Assembly (NCBI GenBank): GCA_018896875.1
Contig: JAHILT010000032.1
Span: forward strand, 1 to 60,897
Origin: Patescibacteria group bacterium
GTDB taxonomy: Bacteria; Patescibacteriota; Minisyncoccia; UBA6257; 02-FULL-45-10c
Length of the DNA stretch: 60,897 nucleotides
Direction: 5' to 3'
Shown piece after piece: positions 661 through 56,797 of this stretch. The notes beneath the pieces are model-generated. The model was not told the origin of the DNA and did no database searches. It saw nothing but the letters and a program-made list of their open reading frames with translations. Position 1 is the stretch's first letter; every line of letters begins with the position of its first letter. Made by a program: the position numbers and the translations under genes.

Positions 661-664
661 TAGC

Positions 665-3511
665 ATGTACAAACTAAAAACAATACTTTTCAGCACTATC
701 ATTGTCTTAACGCTAATGATAAGTACCACATTCGCCTGGACCAACCCATCCGCCAATCCTCCCGACGGCTCGGGGACTTTGACGGCTTCTACTACGAACA
801 TTGGCATCGGGACGACGAATCCGGGGTATAAATTAGATGTTAATGGAACATTGCGTGTATCAAGTTCGGCAACTTTTAGTGGGGCCTTTTCAGTTGGTGC
901 TGGTCTTTATGTAGGAACTGGCGGAGGGGGAATGTATATAAATACAATAGGTGCAAGAAGTGCTGGGGATGGTTTTACCATTCAAGGTAGAAGAACAGCA
1001 GCGAGTGGATTGCCTAGTGTCCGTATTATATCCGAGACTGGACTTAATAATGATGATATAGCAGTTCAAATTGGTGGTAATGCACCAGTTATGAATATAA
1101 TGCAAGGCGGCAACGTCGGCATCGCTTCCACTACTCCCTGGGGACTTCTATCTGTCAATCCAAACGGGATTACTGGCCCGGCGTTTGTCGTTGGTTCTTC
1201 CACGGTTACCAATTTGATTGTTACTAATGGCGGCAACGTCGGCATCGGGACGACGGCTCCAGCAGAAAAATTAACCTTGCCTTATGGGAATAAAATTGGG
1301 TTCACATTTAGTGATGCTAATTTAAATGTTTATAATAGTATTGGAAAACCAGCTACCGGAAATAGTCCTCTTACTTTTTCTGCTACTTATGCTCCTCCTA
1401 CTGCTGATGATATTTTTGATTTTAGAAATAATCTTGGATCTGTTATGGTAATAGAACAAAGTGGAGAAGTCGGCATCGGGACGACGGATCCAGATGGGAA
1501 ATTAACAGTTAATACCGGCGAAATCAGGATTAAAAATGCTGATACGTATGGATTATCATTTGATTACAGTTCCTGGACGCAGAATGCTCGCATCTGGTTA
1601 TCTGACACATTCCAATTGAATCTCGCTGGGCACACAGGAATTCAGATGTTTAGTAATCATTTAAACGGCGTCTGGACTCCTCGGTTTGCGATTGACATGA
1701 GCGGCAATGTCAGCTTGGGAAACGGCAAACTGTATGTGAAGGAATCTACTGCCAACGTCGGCATCGCTTCCACTACTCCTTGGGGACTTCTATCCGTCAA
1801 TCCAAACGGAATTACCGGCCCGGCGTTTGTCGTTGGTTCTTCCACGGTTACCAATTTGATTGTTACTAATGGCGGAAACGTCGGCATCGGGACGTCGGCT
1901 CCGAATAAATTATTACACTTAAAAACCGCCAGCGGTAACGCGGAATTAGATATTCAAAGTGTTGATAGTCCATATTGGGGTATTTATCAAGATGACACTA
2001 CTGATGATTTGCGTTTTTGGAATGTTGATAACAGAATGACTATCACTGATGCCGGCAATGTTGGGATTGGGACTGTAAGTCCGACCTCTCTCCTTGAGAT
2101 AGTTGGAGATGCATCATTAGATAGTTTTTCAACTAATACTAATGCTTTGCCAGCTATTCGAGATTCACACTCTTCAATCGTTGCTAATGGTTATATTTAT
2201 GTAATTGGAGGATACGATGACAGCAGTGCTGTGTCTACCGTTTACTACGCCGAACTTAACAGCGATGGCTCAACTGGAACTTGGTCTACTAATGCCAATG
2301 CTTTGCCAGTCGCTCTATATGGTCACTCCTCAGTCGTTGCTAATGGTTATGTTTATGTAATTGGAGGAGCTAATGTATCCACTGTCTATTACGCCAAGCT
2401 TAATAGCGATGGCTCAACTGGAACTTGGTCTACTAATACTAATGCTTTGCCTACTACTCGATATGTTCATTCTTCAGTCGTTGCTAATGGTTATGTTTAT
2501 GTAATCGGAGGTTATGATGGTACTAATTATCAATCCACTGTTTATTATGCTGAACTTAACAGCGACGGCTCAACTGGAACTTGGTCTACTAATGCCAATG
2601 CTTTACCAGCTATTGGAGGTAATCGTCCCGCAACAGTTTCTAATGGTTATGTTTATGTAACTGGAGGATGGGACAAAACTAATGTTTTATCCACCGTCTA
2701 TTACGCCAAGCTTAATAGCGATGGCTCAACTGGAACTTGGTCTACTAATGCCAATGCTTTGCCAGCTGCTCGAAGTAATCACTCCTCAGTTGTTGCTAAT
2801 GGTTATGTCTATATAATTGGAGGGGGTGATACTGGCGGTTATAGATCCACTGTTTATTATGCTGAACTTAACAGCGACGGCTCAACTGGAACTTGGTCTA
2901 CTAATGCCAATGCTTTGCCGGGAATTAGAGTTAGACATTCTTCAGTTGTTGCTAATGGTTATGTTTATGTAATTGGAGGAAATGATAGTTTTAATAATCA
3001 ATCAACTGTTTATTATGCTTCCACCGCCCGAATAAAATTCAAGGGAAATCTTGATTTGCTTGGGTTAACATCGTCTTCTCTTACCGATTCTCCAGGTGAC
3101 ACAGGTTCTTCTATTTTCGCTGGAAATATTTTTAGTAATAATACCTTAGAAGTTGGTGGTAATGCTCAATTTTGGAATGGAGTGGGGATTAATGGCAATT
3201 TAACTGTTAATGATGGACTCTCTGTTTCTGGAACCGTAGATATGTTTGGTGCGTGGGAAAGTAAATCAGCTGACACTTCTTATTTAGCAGAGTCTGATGG
3301 ATTTGTAGTTATACACACACTAGATAGTACTTCTAGCATTCTAACTGACAGCGCAAATCCTCCAACTATTGTAAGGGCATGGGTTGCTGGCGTAGTAACA
3401 GGCAATAGACGAGGTTCTGGAACGGTTCCTGTAAGAAAAGGGGATTATTGGAAGGTTGTAACTAATACAGGAACAGCGGCTACGATTTTTTGGATACCGT
3501 TAGGGCAATAA
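665..3511 (+). CDS. large secreted repeat protein: signal peptide, GNVGIGT(T/S)xP tail-fibre-like motifs, six Kelch-type repeats, C-terminal globular domain
   Basis: 948-aa ORF with hydrophobic N-terminus (LTLMISTTFA/WTNP). GNVGIG/GEVGIG motif occurs at least 5 times. Six copies of STVYYA(E/K)LNSDGSTGTWSTNANALP...HSSVVANGYVYVIGG. Confidence 0.88.
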   Translation: MYKLKTILFSTIIVLTLMISTTFAWTNPSANPPDGSGTLTASTTNIGIGTTNPGYKLDVNGTLRVSSSATFSGAFSVGAGLYVGTGGGGMYINTIGARSAGDGFTIQGRRTAASGLPSVRIISETGLNNDDIAVQIGGNAPVMNIMQGGNVGIASTTPWGLLSVNPNGITGPAFVVGSSTVTNLIVTNGGNVGIGTTAPAEKLTLPYGNKIGFTFSDANLNVYNSIGKPATGNSPLTFSATYAPPTADDIFDFRNNLGSVMVIEQSGEVGIGTTDPDGKLTVNTGEIRIKNADTYGLSFDYSSWTQNARIWLSDTFQLNLAGHTGIQMFSNHLNGVWTPRFAIDMSGNVSLGNGKLYVKESTANVGIASTTPWGLLSVNPNGITGPAFVVGSSTVTNLIVTNGGNVGIGTSAPNKLLHLKTASGNAELDIQSVDSPYWGIYQDDTTDDLRFWNVDNRMTITDAGNVGIGTVSPTSLLEIVGDASLDSFSTNTNALPAIRDSHSSIVANGYIYVIGGYDDSSAVSTVYYAELNSDGSTGTWSTNANALPVALYGHSSVVANGYVYVIGGANVSTVYYAKLNSDGSTGTWSTNTNALPTTRYVHSSVVANGYVYVIGGYDGTNYQSTVYYAELNSDGSTGTWSTNANALPAIGGNRPATVSNGYVYVTGGWDKTNVLSTVYYAKLNSDGSTGTWSTNANALPAARSNHSSVVANGYVYIIGGGDTGGYRSTVYYAELNSDGSTGTWSTNANALPGIRVRHSSVVANGYVYVIGGNDSFNNQSTVYYASTARIKFKGNLDLLGLTSSSLTDSPGDTGSSIFAGNIFSNNTLEVGGNAQFWNGVGINGNLTVNDGLSVSGTVDMFGAWESKSADTSYLAESDGFVVIHTLDSTSSILTDSANPPTIVRAWVAGVVTGNRRGSGTVPVRKGDYWKVVTNTGTAATIFWIPLGQ
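1109..1260 (+). repeat. intragenic duplication, copy 1 (about 150 bp)
   Basis: Near-identical to 1751-1902 (7 substitutions counted by eye). Encodes GNVGIASTTPWGLLSVNPNGITGPAFVVGSSTVTNLIVTNGGNVGIGT. Confidence 0.9.
1751..1902 (+). repeat. intragenic duplication, copy 2
   Basis: Offset of 642 bp (214 codons, in frame) from copy 1. Confidence 0.9.
2123..3020 (+). repeat. six tandem Kelch-type repeats of about 50 aa (predicted six-bladed beta-propeller)
   Basis: ANGY(V/I)Y(V/I)(I/T)GG occurs 6 times with conserved STVYYA.LNSDGSTGTWS linkers. Units are highly similar at the DNA level. Confidence 0.8.
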
Positions 3512-13210: not shown

Positions 13211-13289
13211 TATACGTATATGTAAAAAAATATAATTAAAAAACCTGTCTTTGTTAAAACTATGGCGGGTACAGTAAAAATATAAATAC

Positions 13290-15749
13290 ATGAATTATAA
13301 AAATATTTTAAGTTTTTCAATATTAGCTTCAGCCATAATAATCTCTGGCGTTGTGGCGAGTTCAGCGTTGGCGCAAATAAATCCTTTTGATATTCAATTT
13401 CCGATAGAAGAATTAGGTAATTGTACGAGCATGGAAAATTGCAAAATTTATTGCGATAAGTCGCAAAATTCCGATGCTTGTTTTGCTTATGCTGAGAAAA
13501 ACAACTTAATGCCTAAAGAAGAAATAGAGATGGCTAAAAAGTTTAAAGATGTGGGAATGATTGGACCGGGAGGATGCAAGGGACAGACTGAATGTGATAA
13601 GTATTGTGACAACTCAAATAATATAGAGGAGTGTATGGCTTTTGCAATAGAGAATGGAATGATGGATACGAAAAAACAAGAAGAATCTAAAAAAATTTTA
13701 GCAGCGATTAAGAGAGGTGTAAAAATGCCAGCTTGTAATGGACAGAAAGAATGTGACGCGTATTGTTCAAGCTCGGAACATATGGAAGAATGTATGAATT
13801 TTTCTATTGAGGCTGGGATAATGGATCCACAAAAACTGGAAGAATCAAAGAAGGTTTTGGCGGCAATTAAGCGAGGTGTAAAAATGCCAGCTTGTAATGG
13901 ACAGAAAGAATGTGACGCGTATTGTTCAAGCTCGGAACATATGGAAGAATGTATGATTTTTACGTTGGAAGCTGGGCTTATGCCTGATGAAGACAAAGAA
14001 GGTGCGTCAAAAATGCTTACTGCTTTAAAAAAAGGAGTTAATCCTCCAGCATGTCGTGGAGAAAAAGAGTGTGATATTTATTGTTCTCAAGAAGAACATG
14101 TTGATGAATGTGTTAATTTTGCAGAAGCTGCTGGCTTTATGACTAAAGAAGAAGCTGAGATGACACGCAAAACAAGAGGCAGGGGTCCTGGTGGATGCAC
14201 TAACCCAGAAGAATGCGATGTTTTTTGTAGTAATCCTGATAACCAAGAAATTTGTTTTGAATTTGGCAAGGAAAACGGCATGATTTCAGAAAAAGATTTG
14301 GGAAGAATGGATGACGGCAGACAGAGAATGAAAGAATCTTTAGCTCAGGCTCCAGCGGAAATTATAAATTGTCTTAGTTCTAGTTTGGGCATAGCTACAT
14401 TGGAAAAATTAAAAGCAGGGACAGGTATGCTTACTCCAAAAACGGGCGAGGCGATGGATAAGTGTTTCAGACAATTTGCTCCTCAAGGAATGATGCCGGA
14501 TAGACAAGGAGAACCAGGAATGATTGGGGGAGAGATGCCCGCTGATCTTAAAGATTGCATTAGAGACCAAATTGGCGAAGATGGCTTAAATAAAATTCAA
14601 ATAGGACAAATGAATGACCCAGCTTTAATGGAAAAAGCTAGTCCATGTTTTGAAAAATTTGGGCAACAAGATCAACAAGGACAACCTGAACAGATGGGGA
14701 TATTTAATAAAGTAAAAGATTTCGGAAACAATGTAATTGATAGATTTAAGCCTGATGAGAAAGGTGGACAAGATCAACAGGGTCAGCCTGGGCAAATGGG
14801 AATGCCTGATTTTGAAAATATGCCAGCCGAGTTAAAAAGTTGCCTCGAATTAACTTTAGGGGCAGATATTATTGTTAAATTTAAAAACCAAGAAGTTAGA
14901 AATGAAGATATGGAGTTATTAATGGAAAAAGCAAAACCATGTTTTGAAAAGTTTGCTCCGTCGATGGAAGGTTCTCAAATGGAATTTCCTCAAAAAATTC
15001 AGACAGAAACAAGAATGATGGAAGAAGAAAGAACGCAGATGCAGATGAAGATAGAATCAATGCCTTCGCAAGGGACAATAACGTCTCAAGAAATGATAAT
15101 GTCTCAAGAAATGATTGATTGTTTAAGGGCCGAAGTAGGAGAAGAATTAGCTAATAAGATTAAAAGTGGCGCTTTTGAGCTTACTGCTGAAACAGGAGAA
15201 AAAGCTAAAAAATGTTTTGAAAAATTTGATATACGAGTAGATACTCCTCAAATGGATATTAGACAACAAGATAATCAAATTGCTCCTACTCAGCAAATAG
15301 ATATGATGAAAAACGAGGTAATGGAGAAAGAAATGTATGAAAAGAAAATGATGGAAGGAACACAAACGGAAATGATGAAGAATGAAGTGATGGAAAGAGA
15401 GATAATTATGGAGAAAAAAGAGATGAATATGGAAGGAGTATACAAGGCACAGGATGGAGGTGTTAATTTTAATACCGCAGAAGAGAAGGAAATGTATGAA
15501 AGAAAAATGACGGAAGGAATGCAGGACGGGACTATGCCTTATCAATATTCACCAACAGAAACGCAACAATTTGACCCTAATGCTCAGCCAATGGATATGA
15601 TACAGGATGGGACTATGCCTCCTTTATATCCAAATTCAACGGATATGCAACAATTTGATCCTAGTATTGAACCGCAGATAGCTCCTCCAGCACCAAGTAG
15701 TTTTTTAGAAAGGCTTATGGGGAATGTTTTGGGAATTTTGAGTAGATAA
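13290..15749 (+). CDS. secreted modular cysteine-patterned protein with a Met/Gln/Glu-rich C-terminal half
   Basis: Signal peptide (ASSALA/QI). Six modules C-x5,6-C-x3-C-x8-C, each followed by (F/M)A.E.G(M/I)M. Four modules C-x32-34-CF(E/R)(K/Q)F. Then Met-rich repeats. Confidence 0.85.
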   Translation: MNYKNILSFSILASAIIISGVVASSALAQINPFDIQFPIEELGNCTSMENCKIYCDKSQNSDACFAYAEKNNLMPKEEIEMAKKFKDVGMIGPGGCKGQTECDKYCDNSNNIEECMAFAIENGMMDTKKQEESKKILAAIKRGVKMPACNGQKECDAYCSSSEHMEECMNFSIEAGIMDPQKLEESKKVLAAIKRGVKMPACNGQKECDAYCSSSEHMEECMIFTLEAGLMPDEDKEGASKMLTALKKGVNPPACRGEKECDIYCSQEEHVDECVNFAEAAGFMTKEEAEMTRKTRGRGPGGCTNPEECDVFCSNPDNQEICFEFGKENGMISEKDLGRMDDGRQRMKESLAQAPAEIINCLSSSLGIATLEKLKAGTGMLTPKTGEAMDKCFRQFAPQGMMPDRQGEPGMIGGEMPADLKDCIRDQIGEDGLNKIQIGQMNDPALMEKASPCFEKFGQQDQQGQPEQMGIFNKVKDFGNNVIDRFKPDEKGGQDQQGQPGQMGMPDFENMPAELKSCLELTLGADIIVKFKNQEVRNEDMELLMEKAKPCFEKFAPSMEGSQMEFPQKIQTETRMMEEERTQMQMKIESMPSQGTITSQEMIMSQEMIDCLRAEVGEELANKIKSGAFELTAETGEKAKKCFEKFDIRVDTPQMDIRQQDNQIAPTQQIDMMKNEVMEKEMYEKKMMEGTQTEMMKNEVMEREIIMEKKEMNMEGVYKAQDGGVNFNTAEEKEMYERKMTEGMQDGTMPYQYSPTETQQFDPNAQPMDMIQDGTMPPLYPNSTDMQQFDPSIEPQIAPPAPSSFLERLMGNVLGILSR
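13716..13797 (+). repeat. 82-bp exact intragenic duplication, copy 1
   Basis: Identical to 13875-13956 (offset 159 bp, 53 codons). Encodes GVKMPACNGQKECDAYCSSSEHMEECM. Confidence 0.9.
13875..13956 (+). repeat. 82-bp exact intragenic duplication, copy 2
   Basis: See 13716-13797. Confidence 0.9.
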
Positions 15750-23984: not shown

Positions 23985-24228
23985 AGACGTTTCTTTATTG
24001 AAACGATAAATTAAGGGCGTATGGTGGATGCCTTGGCATCAAAAGGCGATGAAGGACGTGGTGTAGCTGCGATAAGCTTCGGGGAGGTGTTTAGCAACCT
24101 TTGATCCGGAGATTTCCGAATGGGGTAACCTAATTGCGTAAACCGCAATTGCTTTATTTCGTAAGAAATAGAGAGCGTATCCGCTGAAGTGAAACATCTC
24201 AGTAAGCGGGAGAATAAAAAACAATAGT

Positions 24229-24260
<32 letters not shown>

Positions 24261-24691
24261 GAGCCCAAACTTGAAGAGAAATTATTAAAATCCGAAATTT
24301 GTGATTCGAAATTAAATTTGATGATCTGTTCGGTCGTTTTAGTAGTCAATTTTTGAGGGTTGTAAGATAGAAACTTTTTCAAAATCATCGAATAGCGAAC
24401 AAAGTTTAGTTAGCTATTCGTTGATTTCGAGAGGAGAGTTACAAAATTAATTTTTAATTGAATCTGCTGGAAAGCGGAACCATAGAGAGTGATAGTCTCG
24501 TAAATAAAAAAAATTAATCTTTCTGTTTCTACCGGTTTATTAAATATCTTCGGATATTTAATAAAAAATCCGGCGAACCAGCAAGGAGAGCTAAATTAGT
24601 TTTTCTTGCTGGTTCTATCTTGAGTACTGCGAGGCCAATAAACCTTGCAGGAAGCAACGAGTACTAATCTCGTGAGGCTAAATACTTTTGA

Positions 24692-24732
<41 letters not shown>

Positions 24733-25171
24733 CAGCCCGGCGAGGGCGTTGAAATAGTACCTGAAACCATATGCTTACAAGGACTCGAAGCCTAAAATGT
24801 ATTCCGCACACAATTAATAACAAGCGGTTGTTTTTTGTGTGCGGAATATATGTGGGTAACGTGGTGCCTATTGAAGAATGAGCCAACGACTTTATGTAAA
24901 TGGCAGGCTAACCTGGTAGAAACGGGGGAGCCATAGGGAAACCGAGTGTTAATAGCGCGAACGTCTCGCAAGAGACAATGTCTTTTATGTAAGACCCGAA
25001 GCCAAGCGAGCTTGCCCTGGACAGGATGAGCCCTGACTAAACATCAGGAGGAGGTCCGAACTAGTAGATCGTGCAACATCTTTAGATGATCTGGGGTAAG
25101 AAGTGAAAAGCTAATCGAGCTTGGTGATAGCTGGTTCTCTCCGAAACAGTTTTTGGACTGGCGGCAACTCA

Positions 25172-25438
25172 GTGACCTTTGAATAAATCCAACGATTATT
25201 GGCCAGAAAGATTTTTTATTCTGGCTAGACGCAAGAAGTGATGTGTGTCTTTAGACACATGAGCGACGAGCAACAACGCTAGAATAAAAAAGATTCTGGC
25301 TCGCAGAGAAACTCAAAATTAAACGAGTTCTGCGTTGCTTCTCCTCAGCGTGGTATAAACCACAGCTTCGTCGTCGCGTCTTAAACTCATTTTAATTTAT
25401 GAGTTTCCAATATATCGCTGTATTTATTCAGAGGTCAC
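25172..25438 (+). repeat. roughly 250-nt helix-tip insertion in 23S domain II carrying the structured palindromic module
   Basis: Base stem GTGACCTTTGAATAAAT...ATTTATTCAGAGGTCAC just 5' of the conserved GGGGGTAGAGCACTG. Contains antisense half 25228-25279 and sense core 25325-25388. Confidence 0.8.
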
Positions 25439-27235
25439 GTAAGTTTTTTGGGGGTAGAGCACTGGATGGTTGACACAGGACGAAAGTCCGGTCGACCAAT
25501 CAAACTCCGAATACCAAAAAATATAGTTGCTAGTTAGACTGCGGGGGCAAAGCTCCGTGGTCGCAAGGGAAAAAGCCCAGATCGCCATCTAAGGTCCCCA
25601 AATTCTTGCTAAGTGTGAAAGGTAGTAATTAGCCATAGACAGATAGTAGGTTGGCTTAGAGGTAGCCATCCTTTAAAGAGTGTGTAACAACTCACTATTC
25701 GAATCCTTTTTTATTAAAGGATTGGTTAGTTGCGCCCAAAATTTACCGGGGCTAAGCAAGATACCGAAGATGCGAATTATCTTATTTTTAATAAGGTAGT
25801 GGTAGGAGAGCATTTCTATCTGCTGTGAAGCCGTACCCGTGAGGGGCGGTGGAGCGATGGGAAGAGAGAATGTTGGCATGAGTAATCCCAAATTGGGTGA
25901 GAAACCCAATCCCCGTAAATCCTAGGTTTCCGTGGCAATGGCAATCAACCACGGGTTAGGCGATCCTAAGGTCATGGCGAAAGCCGCAGCTGAAGGGAAA
26001 GATAGTTAATATTCTATCCCCTCTGGATAGTGCGATGGAGGGACGGAGGAAATAAGGTTGTGCGCCTTAATGGTTTGGCGTCACTGGTTTTAAGAAACGG
26101 CTTCTAGGCAAATCCGGAAGTCTGCTTTTAATAGCAAGTTTCGTAAATTGGAGTAAGGTTAAGTATTTACTTGACTAATACAATCGAATAGCCTCCCAAG
26201 AAAAACTTCTAAGGGTAATTTATTACTAAGCTATTTAGAGATCGTACCGTAAACCGACACAGGTGGATGAGGCGAGCAGCCTCAGGGGAACGAGTGAGTC
26301 TTCGTTAAGGAACTCGGCAAAAAAGCGGCCGTAAGTTCGCAATAAGGCCTGCCCTTCGTAAGAAGGGCCGCAGCTAAAGTATCTCTGGCGACTGTTTACC
26401 AAAAACACAGCTCCCTGCTAACTCGTAAGAGGATGTATAGGGGGTGACGCCTGACCGATGCGAGAAGGTTAACGGTGGGGGTGATATGCAGCAATGTGTA
26501 TTACTCACTACCCGAAGCCCTCGTCAATGTCGGCGGTAACTATAACCGTCCAAAGGTAGCGCAATTCCTTTTCAGGTAAGTTCTGAAGCGCATGAAAGGC
26601 GTAACGATCGGAGAACTGTCTCAACGAAGAGCTCGATGAAAATGCGATTCCCGTGAAGACGCGGGATACCTGCAGCAAGACGAAAAGACCCTAGGAGCTT
26701 TACTGTGTGTTGGTATTGATTTTAAGTATTTGATGCGTAGCGTATTGGGTAGGATTTGAAGTTTCACTTTCGGGTGGAATGGATCCGCCGATGAAACACC
26801 CATCTTCAAGTTTTTAAAGTCTAACCGATTAGGAATCTGGGATTTTCCCGGTAAGCCTAATTGAGACAGTGCCTGCTGGACAGTTTAAATGGGGCATTTT
26901 CCTCCTAAAGAGTAATGGAGGAGTTTATTAAGGTTGGCTTAGCCCGGATGGAAATCGGGCTGGACGCGTAAAGGCAAAAGCCAGCTTGACTGCAAGACTT
27001 ACAAGTCGCGCAGGCGCGAAAGCGGAACTTAGCGACCCGACAGCACTTTATAGAAAGGCTGGAGACAACGGATAAAAGTTACCCTAGGGACAACAGGCTA
27101 GTATCGTCCGAGAGTCCTTATCGACGACGATGCTCGGCACCTCGATGTCGGCTCGCCCTAGCGCGGGGCTGAAGAAGGTCCCAAGCGTATGGCTGTTCGC
27201 CATTTAAAAGGGCACGCGAGCTGGGTTCAAACCGT

Positions 27236-27491
27236 TGATGCGCTAATCATATAATATGATTAGATTGGCGTATGAACGGTTTGAGTCCGAGGAGCAAGAC
27301 ATCATTCACGGCGCTCATAAGAAGTAATTCTTATGAACCAAGTTAACTAATATCGGTGAAACCCTATAAGTGTGGGGTAATACCGAGGGAATTCTATTTT
27401 TATAGAAGCCCGTAGAGACTATACGTTAACCTCCTTATTAAAATAAGGATGAAGATATAGTCCAATGCACGTAGTAATACGTGGAAACATG
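27236..27491 (+). ncRNA. ORF-less group I intron candidate (256 nt) in the 23S
   Basis: Interrupts GGGTTCAAACCGT|CGTGAGACAGGTTGG. Follows a U and ends in G. Internal ACGGTTTG (27276-27283) complements the exon CAAACCGT (27228-27235). GNRA-capped hairpin at 27316-27335. Confidence 0.65.
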
Positions 27492-27837
27492 CGTGAGACA
27501 GGTTGGTCTCTACCTGCTGTAGGCGTTAGTCTGAAAAAGACTTATAAACACTTGAAGGAAGTCGATCCTAGTACGAGAGGACCGGATTGAACGAGCCTCT
27601 GGTCTACCAGCTTTGTTACCAAATGAAGCGCTGGGTAGCTATTGCTCGGAAGGGATAAGAGCTGAAAGCATCTAAGCACGAAGCCCCTCCAAAGACTATG
27701 TGTTAGGTCCGTAGAAGACTACTACGTTGATAGGCCACAAATGTACGCACAGTAATGTGTTTAGTTGAGTGGTACTAATAGACCGATTTTCTTTTATACA
27801 AGGTTTCATACCATTGAAGTTTTGTATAAGAGATTTT

Positions 27838-28103: not shown

Positions 28104-28237
28104 ATCCCCCACATAACAAAGACTAATAAAATATAAATTTAGATATTACAAAAAAAATAATGAACAAGTCGCAAAAAAACAACTTAACAACATTGGCTAT
28201 AAAAGCTTTGCTTTTGGGTCTTTGTTATGTGGGGGAT
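28104..28237 (+). mobile_element. start-codon-abutting inverted-repeat element, copy 1 (134 bp)
   Basis: ATCCCCCACATAACAAAGAC (28104-28123) against GTCTTTGTTATGTGGGGGAT (28218-28237). The right arm overlaps the ATG at 28236. Confidence 0.6.
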
Positions 28238-28997
28238 GAAAAGGTTATTTAAACAATTTTTATATGGAGGAATAGTGCTTTTAATAATAAGCGCTATCCT
28301 TTTGATTATTTATTGGAATGATATTTTTATTGCTCCAACTTGCTTGGACAATATTCAAAATCAAAATGAAGAAGGAATTGACTGCGGGGCGGTTTGTGGA
28401 ATTTCTTGTGAAGAAAAATATTTAGAAGACTTGTCTTATTCTAATCTAAGTATTTTTAGGTTAGATGACCTCGTCTCTTTATATTTTGATTTAAAAAATC
28501 CTAATCCAAACTTTGGTTTAAGAAATTTTAAATACCAAATAGATCTCTATGGCTTTGCCAATAAACTTTTAAAATCAATTAAAGGAGAATCTTTTATTTA
28601 TCCAGAACAAACTAAAAAAATAGTTGAAATTAGTAAAGTCCTCGGGGAAGTAGAAAGCGCAAGAATATCCTTTTCTAATATTAATTGGGAATCTTCTTTA
28701 AATTTCCGTTCTATCAGCCTTGAAAACAAAAATATGAGAACTTATAAAGATGGCGATTCTTTTATAATAAGTGGTAAGATTAAAAATCTTAATAGTTTTA
28801 TTGTCCCAAGGGTAATAATAAATGGTTTTTTGATGGATAGCTCAAACAATATTCTTGGAGTAAGTAAGACAGATTTATTAAATCAATTAGACCCATTCGC
28901 CGAAAAAGAATACAGAGTTTTCATAGAGATTAATCCGGGATTTGAAAAAAGCGTTGATTTCTCCAAGTCTACAACTTCCATTTATTCTTTCTACTAA
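28236..28997 (+). CDS. membrane-anchored hypothetical protein with an N-terminal Cys-rich motif
   Basis: ORF 28227..28997; the MWGM extension comes from the repeat arm, so I prefer the ATG at 28236. TM helix followed by PTCLDNIQNQNEEGIDCGAVCGISC. Confidence 0.65.
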   Translation: MKRLFKQFLYGGIVLLIISAILLIIYWNDIFIAPTCLDNIQNQNEEGIDCGAVCGISCEEKYLEDLSYSNLSIFRLDDLVSLYFDLKNPNPNFGLRNFKYQIDLYGFANKLLKSIKGESFIYPEQTKKIVEISKVLGEVESARISFSNINWESSLNFRSISLENKNMRTYKDGDSFIISGKIKNLNSFIVPRVIINGFLMDSSNNILGVSKTDLLNQLDPFAEKEYRVFIEINPGFEKSVDFSKSTTSIYSFY

Positions 28998-30083: not shown

Positions 30084-30156
30084 TACTAAAACAATTTTAA
30101 ATTACAAATTTTAAATTTTAAATCAAAGAAGAATAAAAATAATTTTAGATTTTTTT

Positions 30157-30520
30157 CTGTCATCTCCGCTCCTTCTGTCATTCTCGCGGAAGCGGGAATC
30201 CAATTCTTTCTTATCCTCCTTATTCCCTCCTTTTAAAGGAGGGCCAGGGTGGATTTTCTCTTCTTCCTTCGTCGTAGGTTGTAAGTCATTTGTCGTAAGT
30301 CAATGCTTTATCAGCATTCCACCAAAACCCTCAAGCAATTTGGTAGATATAGCGACAATCCCTCTTCTTTCATCATCCCCAGAACCATCTTCTTAATCCA
30401 ACCCCTCTTTCTCCCTCTCTGTCATTCCCGTTTTCTTCTTTTATCCCCTCATTCTTTTTTCTTCGTCGTTAGTTGTTTGTCGTCGGTCGTTAGTCAGCAT
30501 GGCGGGAATCCAGTCTTTCT
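30157..30520. repeat. mosaic hairpin island A
   Basis: Modules GTCATTC(T/C)CGCGGA(A/G)GCGGGAATCC (30157-30210), TTATTCCCTCCTTTTAAAGGAGGG..GGGTGGATTTT (30219-30260) and CCACCAAAACCCTCAAGCAATTTGGT (30316-30352). A split copy lies at 30418-30520. Confidence 0.8.
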
Positions 30521-31605: not shown

Positions 31606-31637
31606 TTTTTATCCCCCTCTTCTTTCTTTAGTCTTTT

Positions 31638-31837
31638 TTATTCCCTCCTTTTAAAGGAGGGTTAGGGTGGATTTTCTTTCATCTCTGTCATTCCGCACTT
31701 GATGCGGAATCCAGTTCTTTCCCTATCAAAGGCCCCCCCCAATCTCTATATCCACCAAAACCCTCAAGCAATTTGGTGAATATAGCTGAACTCAGTCCTT
31801 TCCCTTACCATCTGCTCGTCCGTACCGAATCGGTACG
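31638..31837. repeat. mosaic hairpin island B
   Basis: TTATTCCCTCCTTTTAAAGGAGGGTTAGGGTGGATTTTC (31638-31676), GTCATTCCGCACTTGATGCGGAATCC (from 31687), the CCACCAAAACCC...TTTGGTG module (31751-31787) and palindrome CGTACCGA-A-TCGGTACG (31821-31837). Confidence 0.8.
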
Positions 31838-32004: not shown

Positions 32005-32448
32005 ATGAACGAAAAAATTAATACTCAGCCAGTAGCAGAAGATAAAATGGCCGAAAAAAATGAAAAAATTAAAACTCCGCAACAAATAGAAAGAGAGAGA
32101 AGAGAAGAAAAAAAGCAACTTCTTGAAGAACTAACCCAAAATGGCGGAGCATTAGAACACGCTTCCGAAAGATTACAAAACGACAAAGAAGTTGTTATGG
32201 AAGCAGTAAAACAAAAGGGTTGGATGTTAAAATATGCTTCTGAAGAATTACAAGATGATAAAGAAGTTGTTATGATAGCAGTTACGCAAAATGGTGAGGT
32301 ATTTAAATTTGCTTCCGAAAGATTACAAAACGACAAAGAAGTTGCTAAAGCAGCAGTTACGCAAAGAGGTTGGGTATTACAATACCTTCCAAAAGAACTA
32401 CAAAAAGATCCTGAAATAATTGCAGCATCCGAAGCATCAGAAAAATAA
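32005..32448 (+). CDS. DUF4116 repeat protein
   Basis: Repeats of LQ(N/D)DKEVV..AV.Q.GW.L(K/Q)YA(S)EEL typical of DUF4116. Confidence 0.7.
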   Translation: MNEKINTQPVAEDKMAEKNEKIKTPQQIERERREEKKQLLEELTQNGGALEHASERLQNDKEVVMEAVKQKGWMLKYASEELQDDKEVVMIAVTQNGEVFKFASERLQNDKEVAKAAVTQRGWVLQYLPKELQKDPEIIAASEASEK

Positions 32449-36359: not shown

Positions 36360-36368
36360 AATATATGA

Positions 36369-36501
36369 ATCCCACACATAACAAAGACTGATAATATATA
36401 AATATTTAAATGTTATAAAATTAATGAATAAGTCGCAAAAAAATAATTTAACAATATTGATCACAAAAGCTTTGCTTTTGGGTCTTTGTTATGTGTGGGA
36501 T
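36369..36501 (+). mobile_element. start-codon-abutting inverted-repeat element, copy 2 (133 bp), between rpoB and rpoC
   Basis: ATCCCACACATAACAAAGAC (36369-36388) against GTCTTTGTTATGTGTGGGAT (36482-36501), perfect 20-bp arms. ATGAAT at 36365-36370 and again at 36500-36505. Confidence 0.65.
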
Positions 36502-39500
36502 GAATAATCTAGAAGCTATAAAATTAAAGATTGCTTCACCAGAAGACATTTTGAGATGGTCTTATGGGGAAGTATTAAAACCAGAAACTATTAATTATAG
36601 AACTCAACGCCCAGAAAAAGATGGTCTTTTTTCTGAAAAGATTTTTGGACCTACAAAAGATTGGGAATGTTATTGTGGAAAATACAGACGTATTCGTTAT
36701 AAAGGAATAGTTTGCGATAAGTGTGGAGTTGAAGTAACACGTTCTGTGGTTAGAAGAGAAAGAATGGGTCATATTAAATTAGCTACTCCTGTTGTCCATA
36801 TTTGGTTTTTAAAAAGTGCCCCATCTAAAATAAGTTTATTATTAGATGTTCCTTTGCCAAAAATTACGAAAGTTGTTTACTACGCTTCTTATATTGTTAT
36901 TTCTGTAGATGAAGAAGCTAAAAAACGTGTTTTAAAAGACTTAGCGACAGAATTTAAATCTCGTAAGAAAACTGCTTCAAAAGATGAGGTTGATGAAGTT
37001 CAACTTAAAGCAGGCTTTTTAGAAACAAAAAGTGAATTAAATAATCTTAAAGTAGGGGCTGTTGTCAGTGAAGCAGAATATTATGCGCTAGCTAAACGTT
37101 TTGGTGATGTTTTTGAAGCTGGCACTGGAGCAGAATCTATTAGAAAAATATTAGAAGAAGTTGATTTAGGAAAAGTTGTCGCTAATATTAAAAAAGAATT
37201 AACAGACAAAGGTTGCAAAATTAATTCTTTGAACGAGAAGAGAGTTTTAAATAGACTAAAGATAGCTAGCGCAATGTTAAAGAATAACATTAGACCAGAA
37301 TGGATGATTTTAACAGTTCTTCCTATTTTACCTCCTGATCTTCGACCAATGGTAGCTTTAGACGGTGGACGTTATGCTACGTCAGACTTAAATGATCTTT
37401 ATAGAAGAGTAATAAACAGAAACAATCGTCTTAAAAAACTTTTAGAACTTAAGGCTCCTGATGTTATTATTCTTAATGAAAAAAGAATGCTTCAAGAATC
37501 AGTTGATTCTTTAGTAGATAATTCTGCTCGTTTTGGCACTCAACAAATGTCTAGTCAAAGAAGACCGCTAAGATCATTAGCAGATATGTTGAAAGGAAAA
37601 CAAGGAAGATTTAGACAGAATTTACTTGGAAAAAGAGTTGATTATTCGGCTCGTTCTGTTATTGCGGTTGGTCCAGATCTTAAAATTTCTGAGTGTGGCC
37701 TGCCTAAGAAAATGGCATTAGAATTATTTAAGCCATTTGTAATTAGTAAAATATTAGAAAGAGAATTAGCGCATAATATTAGAAATGCTAATAGATTAAT
37801 TGAACAAGCCCCTCCAGAAGTTTGGGCTATCTTAGAAGAGGTTATTGCAGATAGAAAGGTTTTGCTTAATCGTGCGCCAACTCTACATCGTTTGGGAGTA
37901 CAAGCTTTTAAACCATTGCTTACGGAAGGCTTAGTTATACGTATTTCTCCTTTAGTTTGCGCGGCTTTTAATGCTGATTTTGATGGTGACCAGATGGCTG
38001 TTCATTTGCCTCTTTCTAGCGAATCCCAAAAAGAGGTAAGCGAAATAATGCTTTCAAGTCATAATCTTTTAAAGCCAGCTACAGGACAACCAATAACTCT
38101 TCCTAGTCAAGACATAGTTTTAGGTTGCTATTACTTAACAAAAATTATAAAGAATACGAAGGGAACTGGTAAGAGTTTTGCTAATGAACAGGAAGCTTTG
38201 ATTGCTTATGAAATGGAATATGTGGCTATAAATGCTTTAGTTAAAATAGGGAAATTAGAAACTTCTGTTGGTAGAGTTATATTTAACGAAGCTCTTCCAG
38301 AAGATTTTGATTTTATTAATGAAACTGTAAGCAAAAAACTTTTCCCTAAGATTATTTTCAAGATAGTTAAGGATTATGGAACAGAAAAAGCAGCTGATTA
38401 TTTAGATGCCATCAAAAAAATTGGTTTTGAATATGCTTCTCGCTCTGGTATAACTTGGGCTAGTAGCGACTTAATATCACCGAAAGAAAAAGACGAGATT
38501 ATTAAAAAAGCAGACGAAGATGTTATGAAAATACGACAGCAATACGAAGACGGTCTTTTAACTAATAGTGAGAGAAAAGTAAAAGTTATCAAAATTTGGA
38601 TTGACGTAAAAGACAAGATTTCTGAATTAGTGCCAATGGGAATGACAGAAGAAAATTCTATTTTTTCTATTATTGATTCTGGCGCTAGAGGTAGTTGGTC
38701 TCAGCCAGTACAAATGATGGGAATGAAAGGTTTAGTTCAAAATCCAAAAAATGAGCCTATTGAATTACCTATAAAATCTTCATTAAAAGAAGGTCTTAGT
38801 GTTTTGGAATACTTTATTTCTACTCATGGAGCCAGAAAGGGTGCTACTGATACAGCATTAAAAACAGCTTCGGCTGGTTATTTGACACGTCGTTTGGTGG
38901 ATGTTTGCCAAGACCTAGTTATTAAAGAAGATGACTGTAAAACTAAAGAAGGGATTGTTATTAATCGAGAAGATGGGTCTGAAGTTGGTCAAGTTTTTGG
39001 CTATGGCGATCAACTTTTTTCCAGAACTGTTCTAGAAGATGTTAAAATCAATGGAAAAGTTATTATTAAAAAAGGAGATATTATTGATGAAGAAAAAAAT
39101 GAACTTATTGAAAAATCTTCTATAAAATCAGTTAAGGTTAGATCTGCTATTACTTGTAAAACACTATATGGTCTTTGTTCTAAGTGCTATGGACATGATT
39201 TAGGACATAACAAGCCAGCTGAAAAAGGATTGGCTGTTGGTGTTGTTGCAGCGCAGTCTATCGGTGAACCCGGTACTCAGCTTACAATGAGAACATTCCA
39301 TACTGGTGGTGTTGCTGGAGCGGATATTACCCATGGTTTACCAAGAGTAGAAGAGGTTTTTGAATGTCGTTCTCCTAAGGGTAAATCTTATATTGCTACT
39401 GAAGATGGAATTGTAGAAGGAATAGAACAACAAGGATTAGTTAAAATAATTAAAATAAAATCTTCTGAGAAAAAGAAAGGTGTTCTTGAATATCAAATTC

Positions 39501-47812: not shown

Positions 47813-47890
47813 GGTAGTAAGTGTAAATTGTAAATTAAAAATTGTAAAATATTCCCTTCCATCCGTCCCCCTTTTATTCATCTTATCCCC

Positions 47891-48031
47891 GAGGTTCAAC
47901 CTCTCAATTATTAATTCTTATCTTATCTTCAGGAGGTTGAACCTCCAAACATTAAACCTTCTTATTCCCTCCTTTTAAAGGAGGGCTAGGGCATGCCCCC
48001 TTACTCATCCTTGAGTGTGGGGGTGGATTTT
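47891..48031. repeat. mosaic hairpin island C
   Basis: GAGGTTCAACCTC (47891-47903) pairs with GAGGTTGAACCTC (47933-47945). The long form of the TTATTCCCTCC...GGTGGATTTT module lies at 47961-48031. Confidence 0.8.
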
Positions 48032-51331: not shown

Positions 51332-51694
51332 TAGTTAGCCACTAGCCATTAGAAGTGTAAAATTTAAAAATCAAAAATCAAAATGACAATGCAAAAATAT
51401 AAAATATAAGAATTAATTCAGAAACAGTAATCTCATTTTTTGTTCTAACTTTTGGATTTTTTATCCCCCTCCTTTAGGAGGGGTTAGGGGAGATTTTCCC
51501 CTCCGTCATTGCGAGGTTCGCCAGCAGGCGAACCGCGGCAATCTCTCTATCGTTTCCTTTTTTTCTGTCATCTCCGCTCCTTCTGTCATTCCCGCGGAGG
51601 CGGGAATCCAGTCTTTCCCATCTTTCTTATTCCCTCCTTTTAAAGGAGGGCTAGGGCATGCCCCCTTACTCATCCTTGAGTGTGGGGGTGGATT
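51332..51694. repeat. mosaic island D: roughly 140-bp AT-rich unit plus four GC-rich hairpin modules
   Basis: 51332-51470 is homologous to 55573-55705. 51505-51695 is nearly identical to 56610-56797 apart from an indel in the first hairpin. Confidence 0.85.
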
Positions 51695-51804
51695 TAAATT
51701 ATAAAGACAACGAAGGCGTCAGAATAATAACGAAACAAAAATAAGCTAACCCTTGTTTTATAAGTGAAATTAGGAAAGTTTCTTAATTAATTTATTCATG
51801 TTTG

Positions 51805-53333: not shown

Positions 53334-55338
53334 CTTCTCTAGATTTTATTTGTTGTGTGCCGTAAGTAAACACAGAACCTCCCGATTCTTCCCATATATA
53401 TTCTATAGGAGTAGCAACTTCATATTCTAAAGATCCATAGTCTCCGGATTGTTTATCAAAAACAAAGGTGAATTTACTACCATCTTCTATTTTAATCCTT
53501 CCTATTTGTTCGTAGTTTAAAATAAGAGTTTTTGTTTCTCCTGCTGGAGTATTAATCCATGTGCCAACAAATTGTTTATCCTTTTCTTCTCCTCTCCAAA
53601 TTTTAGAATCTTCTACATAAAAAGAATTTTCTTCAATAGCCTTTAGGTCTTCATCAATTTTAAGACTAGGGTTATGCTCTAAATTTAAATAGTCATAAGG
53701 AGACGAATCGTTTCCATCAACAGATATTATTTCAGAAATTTTAGGAATTAATATTTTAGAATAATTTTTATTAGTTGCTGTATACCACCAATCTTTTTCG
53801 TTTTGTCCGCTATGAGTTCGTGTAATCGAAAGCTTGTTAACAATATTTCCGTCTTTTAGAATTTGGCTTTGGAGTTGTATTTGTTGGTTAATAAAAGCAT
53901 CGCTTTTCCCTCCGGCTACATTACTATTAACCACAGCTAAATAATCGCCATTGAAATTTTTAGGGATAGAAAATGATGTTCCGTCTAGTTTGAATTCTAA
54001 AAATATTTTTTGGATATCTTCATTCTCGGAAAACGCCATAATATCTTTTTGCTCAATACCTTTTTTTATATTTTCAATAAGTTCCAGCTTTTGGTCATCA
54101 TCTAAATCTTTTAATCTTTCTATAATTTTTGGGGCTAAAATAGTAAGAACTAGTTTTGGATTTTGTCCAGGAACATGATCACGTCCAGCTTCTACTTCGT
54201 ATTGAAGTTGCTCCAAGAAATTAGAACTATCAATAACTAAATCGTATTCAGGAATCTCAATAGGTCCAATAAGATTTAATATAAAACTTAAAACATGAGG
54301 ATTAATAGCTATCACATTTTCAAATTCATCGTTTGTTTTATTAAAGAGTTGTGAATTTTCTAAAAAGCAAGATACTTTTTGTGCCGAGTCAGGGAAGTCA
54401 AAAAACCAATTAGCATCTCTTGCTCCCCATATGTCTGTAATCGTACTAAGTTCTCTTGGCGGAGCCACTTCAATATCTAATTGTCGGTCAGAATTATATA
54501 TATCTTCAATTTTTATTTCTTTTATACTTCCATTATTCAAGGTGATATACCCGAAGCTTCCGATAAAACCACCAGCTGGACGTATCTCTGTAGCGTTCTG
54601 GAATAGTAATAATATTTTGACATCTTCTGGTGCTTCCAAGAGAGATACTAAAGCCTCAATCATTTCTTGTCCTTTATAAATGCTTAAATTAATATAAGGA
54701 TAATTTTTATCAAAAGCATCATATATTTCAACTAATCTTGGACTTAAATCTTTTAACTCTCTAGCTTGTTTTCTGAAATCTTCGGTCGTTTTTTCTAAAG
54801 AATAAAGATTGTCTTTGATACTGTTTAGTCTGTCTATTAATTCTCCTCCTTTTTGGTTAAAAATGAGTTGAATGGCGTTGTTTTTTAAGTAATCTATATC
54901 ACTTGCCACTTGTGTGATTTTATCGCTAATAATGGCAATATTTTTGAAAGCCCCAGGCACTTCTTCTAATGATTTATTAAATTGTCCAATCACAGAAAAC
55001 AACTCGGTTATTTTATATATTTTGATTTTTGATTCCAATTCTTTAATTTCTTGATTAATGGCCATCAAGGAATCTTTTAGTTGCCCAGTCTTTGTTTCTT
55101 TCAGGGCGTTTTTTATAATTTGAATATGTATGGATGTATACCGAAGAGATTCGGAAAGAGTATTTTTAATGCCAATAATAAAAAATGTTCCGACAATTAT
55201 ACCGATTAACAATCCGAAAACAACAACATATTTTATTATTTTATTTATATATTTTTTCCTCTTATTCCCTCCTTTTAAAGGAGGGCTAGGGTGGATTTTC
55301 TTTTCTTTATTCAAACAGTTTTTCTTTTCTTCTGCCAT
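53305..55338 (-). CDS. DUF4012 domain membrane-anchored protein
   Basis: LLLFQNATEIRPAGGFIGSFGY signature after one TM helix. The ORF runs to 55572, but 55339-55572 is repeat-derived; ATG at 55338 (MAEEKK) preferred. It still contains one hairpin module in frame. Confidence 0.8.
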   Translation of the reverse strand: MAEEKKNCLNKEKKIHPSPPLKGGNKRKKYINKIIKYVVVFGLLIGIIVGTFFIIGIKNTLSESLRYTSIHIQIIKNALKETKTGQLKDSLMAINQEIKELESKIKIYKITELFSVIGQFNKSLEEVPGAFKNIAIISDKITQVASDIDYLKNNAIQLIFNQKGGELIDRLNSIKDNLYSLEKTTEDFRKQARELKDLSPRLVEIYDAFDKNYPYINLSIYKGQEMIEALVSLLEAPEDVKILLLFQNATEIRPAGGFIGSFGYITLNNGSIKEIKIEDIYNSDRQLDIEVAPPRELSTITDIWGARDANWFFDFPDSAQKVSCFLENSQLFNKTNDEFENVIAINPHVLSFILNLIGPIEIPEYDLVIDSSNFLEQLQYEVEAGRDHVPGQNPKLVLTILAPKIIERLKDLDDDQKLELIENIKKGIEQKDIMAFSENEDIQKIFLEFKLDGTSFSIPKNFNGDYLAVVNSNVAGGKSDAFINQQIQLQSQILKDGNIVNKLSITRTHSGQNEKDWWYTATNKNYSKILIPKISEIISVDGNDSSPYDYLNLEHNPSLKIDEDLKAIEENSFYVEDSKIWRGEEKDKQFVGTWINTPAGETKTLILNYEQIGRIKIEDGSKFTFVFDKQSGDYGSLEYEVATPIEYIWEESGGSVFTYGTQQIKSREVIELTLKKQ

Positions 55339-56609: not shown

Positions 56610-56797
56610 TTTTTCTCTATCATTGCGCTTTGCCCGCGGCAATCTCTCTATCGTTTCCTTTTTTTCTGTCATCTCCGCTCCTTCTGTCATTCCCGCGGAG
56701 GCGGGAATCCAGTCTTCCCCATCTTTCTTATTCCCTCCTTTTAAAGGAGGGCTAGGGCATGCCCCCTTACTCATCCTTGAGTGTGGGGGTGGATTTT
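56610..56797. repeat. mosaic hairpin island F
   Basis: Same module order as 51505-51695 (CATTGCG...CGGCAATCTC; GTCATTCCCGCGGAGGCGGGAATCC; long TTATTCCCTCC...GGTGGATTTT). Confidence 0.85.

Follow-up and report, generated by a model that had tools for sequence, protein, structure and literature searches.

The stretch of DNA analysed here, to which we refer as the window, comprises the whole 60,897 nt of contig JAHILT010000032.1 from a Patescibacteria group bacterium, and positions below are given in its own numbering, the element copies, their short ORFs and rpoC lying on its + strand. At three places in the window the start codon of a gene is occupied by a copy of a 120-136-nt inverted-repeat element resembling the MITEs (miniature transposable elements with inverted repeats) of other bacteria. 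Copy 1 (28105..28236, arms CCCCCAC/GTGGGGG) lies 3' of the 5S rRNA gene, at the start of a gene encoding a 253-aa membrane protein (28236-28997). Copy 2 (36370..36500, T-CCCACAC...GTGTGGG-A) is located between rpoB and rpoC, at the start codon of the latter (36500..40051), and is composed of a left arm (36370..36388), an interior that ends in a small hairpin (CAAAAGC-TTT-GCTTTTG, 36464..36480) directly 5' of the right arm, and the right arm itself (36482..36500), the final A of which is the A of the rpoC ATG. Copy 3 (40519..40724), at the start codon of ssb in the rpsF/ssb junction, is a composite of two units with perfect outer arms, namely a distal unit 3a (40519-40653), the right arm of which has decayed, and a truncated unit 3b (40657-40724).

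Each copy carries a short open reading frame (ORF) that begins with ATG: 28160-28252 in copy 1 (30 aa), 36424-36507 in copy 2 (27 aa, MNKSQKNNLTILITKALLLGLCYVWDE) and 40678-40737 in unit 3b (19 aa, MINFKKTLSSLCYVWDEFK), whereas unit 3a is devoid of an ORF of this type. These ORFs were the subject of the original prediction, which described them accurately. All three read through the right arm in a common frame (LCYV[GW]DE), and their stops, placed by the prediction 5 to 14 nt past the host ATG, begin 14, 5 and 11 nt after its A in copies 1, 2 and 3, respectively; the sequence given as an example at rpoC (ATGAATAA) is correct. Three synonymous AAC/AAT changes are all that separates copies 1 and 2 over the first nine codons, while the left interior is indeed diverged, the two copies being 68% identical there and 88% identical over the right 83 nt. 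The same can be said of the hairpin proposed to bury a start codon devoid of a Shine-Dalgarno (SD) sequence, for the arms form a 20-bp stem that takes in the A and the U of the host AUG, and an SD-like motif at -18 to -4 is found in only 4 of the 40 long ORFs of the window. Many of these long ORFs present TATAAT-like boxes 5-20 nt upstream of their ATG, and SD-independent, possibly leaderless, initiation is suggested for this genome. What the prediction had missed is that we are dealing with an insertion, one by which the start codon becomes duplicated, leaving a decoy ATG that opens a second, upstream ORF (uORF) through the left arm.

Element-free sites in related genomes delimit the insertion. 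In the closest relative by RpoC (L111; P0002, 92% identical) rpoB overlaps rpoC and rpsF ends one base from ssb, with no element at either junction, and the rpsF/ssb junction of this relative (gaaTAAt|ATGAATttaaataaagc) equals the window sequence minus the element and one ATGAAT, exactly. The P0002 homologue begins MNNLEAIKLK, and the ATG at 36500 is the ancestral start of rpoC. A second relative (L113, RpoC 81% identical) has no element at rpoC or ssb, nor at the ortholog of the gene occupied by copy 1, which starts as ...aataaataca|ATGAATAGA. In the window, ATGAAT flanks copy 3 on both sides (40514-40519 and 40724-40729), the two TGAA copies around copy 2 occupy 36366-36369 and 36501-36504, and the left duplicate of copy 1 has decayed to ATAAAT. 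Throughout the family the element-side bases T and A are invariant (40 of 40 copies), in the layout ...A TGAA T-CCC...GGG-A TGAA x..., and the flanking 4-nt repeat is perfect in 34 of 40 copies, in which it takes five different sequences: TGAA (29), TGGA (2), TGAG, TCAA and TTGA. Given the invariant T and A and the matching four bases that flank them, the element itself corresponds to T-CCC...GGG-A, and the duplicated target is 4 nt long. Copy L075, inserted six codons inside a pcrA/uvrD-like gene, needs a duplication of at least 4 nt for the original frame to be reconstructed. A 2-bp (GA) duplication fails at L098 and requires coincidences at L075 and L028b, a 5-bp (ATGAA) duplication fails at both of the latter, and an insertion of the IS200/IS605 type, without duplication, is ruled out by the covariation of the right repeat and the left flank. 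Likewise, a hairpin bypass that would restore the reading frame can be discarded, since looping out the stem still leaves 2 or 4 extra bases.

Insertion takes place at A|TGAA, which means at start codons of the form ATG-AAx, and always in one orientation. After insertion the host ATG is rebuilt from the last A of the element and the duplicated TG, the duplicated TGA can act as a stop for the frame ...GGA TGA, and the old ATG, together with its native upstream context, stays as a decoy before the left arm. Terminal inverted repeats, a duplication that varies with the site, empty sites, and a small size and multiple copies without a transposase gene are all present, and the short ORFs of the window thus lie in a non-autonomous, MITE-like inverted-repeat transposon of the Patescibacteria/Paceibacteria, the group to which the nearest proteins of the window RpoC also belong.

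A total of 42 non-redundant copies was assembled from the window, Patescibacteria genomes and metagenomes. Scanning one genome per prokaryotic species for the arm pattern provided 17 further paired copies, a gapped two-arm scan of metagenomes another 19, and a fuzzy search of the fetched DNA led to the final set. The left boundary of the unit reads CCC[A/C/G]CACATAACAAAGAC and the right boundary is its exact reverse complement; the ends can be written as T-CCCNCACATAACAAAGAC...GTCTTTGTTATGTGNGGG-A or, in another rendering, as T-CCCNCACATAAC...GTTATGTGNGGG-A with a TGAA-type duplication. Besides the window, with its three copies, the carriers include the metagenome-assembled genomes (MAGs) JAUSKP01 (at least 9 copies) and JAUYKI01 (at least 7 copies), Yanofskybacteria and Harrisonbacteria MAGs, a "Patescibacteria group" MAG, a MAG labelled Saccharibacteria and groundwater metagenomes. 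An nhmmer search of about 0.9 Mb of fetched DNA detected no decayed copies besides unit 3a, nothing similar to the element or to an autonomous partner was found in viral contigs, plasmids or phages, and no Rfam 15 family matched at its gathering score, the sole match (E=0.67) being at chance level.

In 40 of the 42 copies the element lies directly against the start codon of a genuine ORF, the exceptions being L075 and L028b, which lies some 330 nt upstream of rpsL. The interrupted genes include rpoC, ssb, gap, hrcA, tig, hpf, ychF, corA, proteases, glycosyltransferases and a pilin. The window contains 16 TGAA sites at gene starts, 549 in coding sequence and 66 in other non-coding sequence (16, 149 and 18, respectively, for ATGAA), so that purging of coding insertions alone would be expected to leave 20-47% of the copies at starts, versus the 40 of 42 observed (p about 2e-11). 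Orientation relative to the gene is the same in all 42 copies, and in nhmmer comparisons full-length units score 54-104 bits on the sense strand versus 25-47 bits on the antisense strand. Roughly half of the copies have a co-directional upstream gene whose stop falls -5 to +37 nt from the duplicated ATG, and several of these upstream genes use the TGA of the left ATGA as their stop.

The two arms, 19-20 nt long, can form a stem worth about -40 kcal/mol. Folding energies of whole elements lie between about -40 and -49 kcal/mol (z-scores between -5 and -8), and 99.6% of the stem cells of 38 copies are paired in spite of changes such as those at arm position 4, where A:U (17), C:G (9), G:C (8) and U:A (1) all occur; changes on both sides affect 20 stem cells, versus 4.7 in shuffles. 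At the orthologous filled sites L013 and L100, the flanks of which are 83-89% identical, the stems differ by two compensatory pairs and by none that is uncompensated. A further pair (L034 versus L108) is 98% identical over the element and 83% over the host coding sequence, and composite copy 3 combines perfect outer arms with decayed inner ones. G:U and A:C mismatches, which might distinguish an RNA from a DNA stem, number 5 versus 2, a split that is uninformative. The small hairpin ends 1-2 nt 5' of the right arm in about 36 of the 42 copies and is formed by at least six different stem sequences. An intrinsic terminator made of this hairpin and the T-rich arm was rejected as a general feature because essential genes lie directly downstream, and a terminator-like score was obtained for copy 2 alone. 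In a pair of orthologous glycosyltransferase genes (L039/L092, 66% nucleotide identity) the element is found at both starts with identical arms and nearly unalignable interiors, which corresponds either to one insertion of great age, its arms strongly conserved, or to two independent hits.

Two further start codons accompany the insertion. An ATG in the right arm is in frame with the host gene and open in 39 of 40 copies; in copy 2 it occupies 36491-36493, in frame with rpoC. Gene calling places the starts of the host genes at this codon (28227, 36491 and 40715; protein P0001), yielding proteins that begin MWGM... or MCGM... and adding three residues without counterpart in relatives, an artefact that many public Patescibacteria proteins probably share. 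The second is the decoy ATG, kept in 34 of the 42 copies, from which a uORF of 5-46 codons (MNP[TPA]HNKD...) spans the left arm in all but L062, L090 and L098, where a five-codon version stops inside the arm. In copy 2 the duplicated ATGAAT and its uORF, MNPTHNKD*, run through the left arm at 36365..36391, and in copy 3 the corresponding uORF (40514..40594) has 26 codons. The decoy ATG has been lost in 5-6 of the 17-19 copies that bear an interior ORF and in none of the 20 of the subfamily A described below (Fisher p about 0.01). Three independent copies (L011, L082 and L094) have turned the decoy ATGAAT into ATAAT, destroying the decoy start through the loss of its G, and in L011 and L082 this leaves a TAA stop for the upstream gene.

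The original prediction had attributed the short ORF to the element as such and had proposed frame conservation in additional copies as the check. By that standard this particular ORF cannot be regarded as a feature of the family: in the frame concerned, an ATG ORF is present in 9 of the 42 copies, three of them those of the window, and lacking in the other 33. Outside the window 6 of 38 copies have one, none with the same N-terminus, and the MNKSQKNN head is restricted to the window copies. Across the family, stops in this frame fall anywhere from 2 to 134 nt past the A of the host ATG. All three host-proximal units of the window have an ORF in the same frame, versus a background of about 16%, but this is weak on its own because copies 1 and 2 are close relatives. 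The comparison of substitution rates that had also been proposed was uninformative, because half of the ORF (codons 15-27) consists of the small hairpin and the arm: by the Nei-Gojobori method (NG86), copies 1 and 2 show a non-synonymous rate (dN) of 0.08 and a synonymous rate (dS) of 0.30, with 3 synonymous and 6 non-synonymous changes. A single long ORF starting at the decoy ATG and spanning the entire element was also considered and rejected, for frames open over the whole element occur in 6 copies in sense and in 7 in antisense, with no strand-specific signal.

A different picture emerges from subfamily B, comprising the 14 copies, from at least six sources, with small hairpins of the GCGAA, GCGAC or TGCG type. 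Nearly all of them contain an interior ATG ORF of 26-28 codons, in the other non-host frame, that crosses the small hairpin and then the right arm (...CAG TCT TTG TTA TGT GTG GGA TGA) and whose TGA overlaps the host ATG as ATGA. Its ATG lies exactly 19 nt before a conserved GTCG motif in 14 of 14 copies, and its distance to the arm is 59, 62 or 65 nt in 13 of them, L002 having 61 nt. Only two stops are found in this frame, both in L002, versus 37 and 28 in the other sense frames and 10-22 in the antisense frames. The encoded peptides, on the other hand, are nearly free to vary: lineages are 45-67% identical over the first 14 codons, third codon positions, only slightly more variable than the rest, account for 38.5% of the pairwise differences and the other two for 30.6% and 30.9%, and pairwise dN/dS ranges from 0.2 to 1.5, at about 0.6. 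Given the depletion of stops, the frame-preserving length steps, the fixed ATG and the nearly free peptide, this looks like the signature of selection for translation rather than for its product, and judging from these alignments it is the integrity of the ORF, not the peptide, that appears to be selected. Two related copies (L082 and L049) have a version 12 nt longer, which in L049 has shifted into the frame of the window ORFs and does not close until 8 nt past the host ATG. The geometry of subfamily B suits termination-reinitiation better than that of the window ORFs. The proposal of such a mechanism in the original prediction is partly supported, by analogy with subfamily B, the ORF of which ends as ATGA on the host start, and is unproven for the copies of the window.

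Taken together, we favor, with a probability of roughly 0.45, a reading in which the element is a start-codon MITE whose stem is opened for the host gene by translation of short ORFs within the insert, among them the sequence-free ORF of subfamily B. Ribosomes engaged on such an ORF would keep the interrupted gene expressed; in subfamily B the interior ORF of 26-28 codons would hand them over to the host start at the AUGA overlap, the similarly sized interior ORFs of the window copies, with stops 5-14 nt past the host ATG, would plausibly do the same job, and in subfamily A the decoy-start uORF through the left arm may open the stem. The peptides themselves would have no function. A stronger version, in which the element homes to start sites by a mechanism of its own, rebuilds start and stop and carries the ORF as a ribosome delivery device, so that the whole would constitute an evolved translational re-coupling in essential operons of compact genomes, seems rather unlikely to us.

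Several observations weigh against the favored reading. Subfamily A, the largest, with about 20 copies (GAAAGC-TTT-GCTTTC hairpin; tig, gap, ychF and others), is interrupted by stops in each of the two non-host frames and lacks an interior ATG ORF through the right arm, and shows that essential host genes work without one. The window subfamily amounts to two related copies and a truncated one; its ORF differs from that of subfamily B in both ATG and frame, the position of its stop is dictated by the host gene and not by the element, and the dN/dS of 0.28 between its two full copies is based on 9 changes. For subfamily B, a crude two-level neutral simulation over the initial 14 codons puts the joint probability that the ATG and the open frame are kept at ~10^-8, a value that speaks for the favored reading but overstates the independence of copies with shared ancestry. 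No recognizable ribosome-binding signal precedes any short ORF in the element copies, and no transposase with matching ends was found in the arm scan of one genome per species, which returned only pairs 100-130 nt apart and left the whole genomes of the carriers outside the search. Finally, template-switch correction of quasipalindromes is a known mutational process, and the complementarity of the arms could stem from it without selection. As regards subfamily A, the loop of the small hairpin holds a TTG in the frame of the window ORFs (L054, L083, L091 and other copies); three copies with a loop TAT are an exception in having an ATG there, and with it a 12-codon ORF, MLSSLCYVWDE.

The alternative that survives best is that the ORFs of the window are fortuitous and the element is a selfish MITE, its stem being opened by ribosomes from the decoy start or the upstream gene, or transiently during co-transcriptional translation. 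We regard this as a serious, if tentative, possibility. None of the three frames is closed across the right arm, and an ATG is readily supplied by the AT-rich interior, in agreement with the lack of the predicted ORF in most copies and in all of subfamily A, and with whole-element open frames being as common in antisense as in sense; the decoy uORF of 34 copies and the co-directional stops near the decoy in about half of all copies would supply the ribosomes. Chance, however, hardly accounts for the integrity of the subfamily B ORF, for the same frame being open in all three host-proximal units of the window, or for L049 having remained open after its frameshift.

RNase III is known to process the Correia elements of Neisseria and rRNA intervening sequences, and its cutting of the 20-bp stem might take away the decoy start together with the interior and generate a leaderless or nearly leaderless mRNA with its 5' end at or next to the in-arm AUG, making the interior ORFs irrelevant. 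This would fit the almost universal conservation of an open, in-frame ATG at the centre of the right arm, the stem remaining perfect in orthologous copies, the SD-poor genome with TATAAT-like boxes near many of its ATGs, and L075, where the in-arm ATG is the sole remaining start codon and heads an intact 599-codon ORF. We deem it improbable nonetheless, for the in-arm ATG is forced by pairing with the CAT of the left arm, and both the fixed orientation and the conserved subfamily B ORF are left unexplained.

It is slightly less probable still that an outward promoter within the element starts host transcripts inside it, so that they lack the left arm and the stem never forms. Such a promoter would account for the fixed orientation, and unit 3a does contain a near-consensus TTGAAA-17-TATAAT (40559..40587, 11 of 12 matches) pointing at ssb, although in this copy only; several subfamily A copies, read directly, present TTGTTx-16/17-CATAAT. 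Copies 1 and 2, however, have no promoter-like site on the sense strand, and a family-wide sigma-70 promoter is ruled out by best-match scores of 7.9 in sense versus 8.0 in antisense and 8.1 in shuffles.

The small membrane peptide that the original prediction had left open is very improbable in spite of the polar head and hydrophobic tail of the window peptides and of the low dN/dS between two of them, for the N-terminus is unique to the window, the sequence is conserved nowhere else, the C-terminal half is dictated by hairpin and arm, subfamily B peptides are ~50% identical with a dN/dS of about 0.6, the frame differs between subfamilies, and no amino-acid sequence under purifying selection could be recognized across copies.

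In concept, the element is closest to the mycobacterial interspersed repetitive units (MIRUs), the source study on which is said to be that of Supply et al. in 1997. In the passages of PMC3184786 devoted to them, MIRUs are repeats in operon junctions with small ORFs that overlap the flanking stop and start, and they share with our element the location in intra-operon junctions, the orientation with transcription, tetranucleotide direct repeats, empty versus filled sites and a proposed translational coupling; they are portrayed there as repeats of 40-100 bp, often in tandem, with imperfect inverted repeats, from GC-rich mycobacteria. The element described here, in contrast, is a single unit with perfect terminal inverted repeats of 19-20 bp and a TGAA duplication that provides both start and stop, and it is also found at the start codons of first genes, in Patescibacteria. 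A MIRU-type overlap of stop and start occurs in subfamily B, where TGA falls on the host ATG, while in the window the stop lies 5-14 nt further and subfamily A has no ORF. The REP2 repeats of Neisseria and the upstream repeats of Borrelia similarly lie directly upstream of many unrelated genes and donate a fused ATG; REP2, as outlined in the same source (PMC3184786), carries a promoter and a ribosome-binding site and lacks terminal inverted repeats, whereas our element has terminal inverted repeats and a target duplication. A repeat of the REP2 type was discarded accordingly: the in-frame ATG is present, but the family as a whole shows no promoter signal, and the in-arm ATG is not preceded by an SD-like motif.

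With MITEs such as Correia, Nezha, RUP and bcr1 the element shares small size, non-coding nature, multiple copies, terminal inverted repeats that yield a long RNA hairpin, target-site duplication, empty and filled sites, and co-transcription with neighbors. These MITEs differ in occurring in either orientation and in varied intergenic places, and in their duplications, which are TA for Correia and TTTAT for bcr1; to our knowledge, none of the four has been reported near-exclusively on start codons in one orientation. An identity with Correia elements is excluded by the TGAA-type duplication and by arms that differ from the 26-bp Correia inverted repeats. The IS1380 family and piggyBac-type transposons have ends beginning 5'-CC(C), duplicate 4-5 bp and target TTAA or AT-rich 5-mers; the likeness is in the ends alone, with a different target preference and no transposase found here. 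Neither a PATE derived from IS200/IS605, which would insert 3' of a fixed tetranucleotide without duplicating the target and carry similar subterminal hairpins at its two ends, nor a REP or REPIN mobilized by RAYT, an extragenic unit that is itself a short imperfect palindrome, fits the data: in the former case, the right repeat changes with the left flank, there is one subterminal hairpin and the ends are inverted repeats of each other; in the latter, the arms are not self-complementary and lack a GTAG-type head. Coupling through AUGA overlaps and the unmasking by ribosomes of a start buried in a hairpin are established in operons and RNA phages, and subfamily B resembles them in that its UGA overlaps the host AUG, which lies in a stem that the ribosome must open; here, though, the coupling ORF would come with a mobile element instead of being the upstream gene. 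The element is set apart from MIRUs, from REP2 and Borrelia repeats and from MITEs by the combination of perfect terminal repeats, a duplication supplying start and stop, near-exclusive placement on start codons and strict orientation, and in the literature we found no description of a start-codon MITE, nor of any MITE in Patescibacteria.

Other repeats and an oversized rRNA gene were observed elsewhere in the window. The 23S rRNA gene (24001-27797) is ~870 nt longer than the Rfam model (2925 positions) and contains no ORF of at least 130 aa, the excess length implying one or more insertions or introns. A second repeat family, GC-richer, mosaic and intergenic, occurs at 30150-30270, 31621-31688, 47868-48030, 51533-51695, 55246-55312 and 56634-56796; with a palindromic core TTATTCCCTCCTTTTAAAGGAGGG, a hairpin GTCATTCCCGCGGAGGCGGGAATCCA and two 163-nt units that share 99% identity, it resembles REP/BIME repeats and shows no apparent relation to the start-codon element. 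Repeats in 11-nt phase upstream of the first long ORF (AATAGTAAT(T/A)C, 330-474) could be iteron-like or protein-binding arrays. Tandem repeats are present at 2076-3143 (156 nt), 13575-14051 (159 nt) and 32127-32409 (75 nt), and the first two lie inside the long ORFs 664-3511 and 13289-15749, which therefore encode repeat-domain proteins.

The genomes of Patescibacteria are tiny and gene-dense, with almost no spare DNA. If the interpretation proposed here is correct, the start codons of genes like rpoC, ssb, gap, tig and hrcA would constitute a safe harbor for a transposon that duplicates start and stop. Should the short ORFs indeed open the hairpin, the element would represent a natural and portable module of translational coupling, found in an organism in which Shine-Dalgarno sites are hardly used, and it would provide a handle on the choice of start codons in SD-poor organisms.

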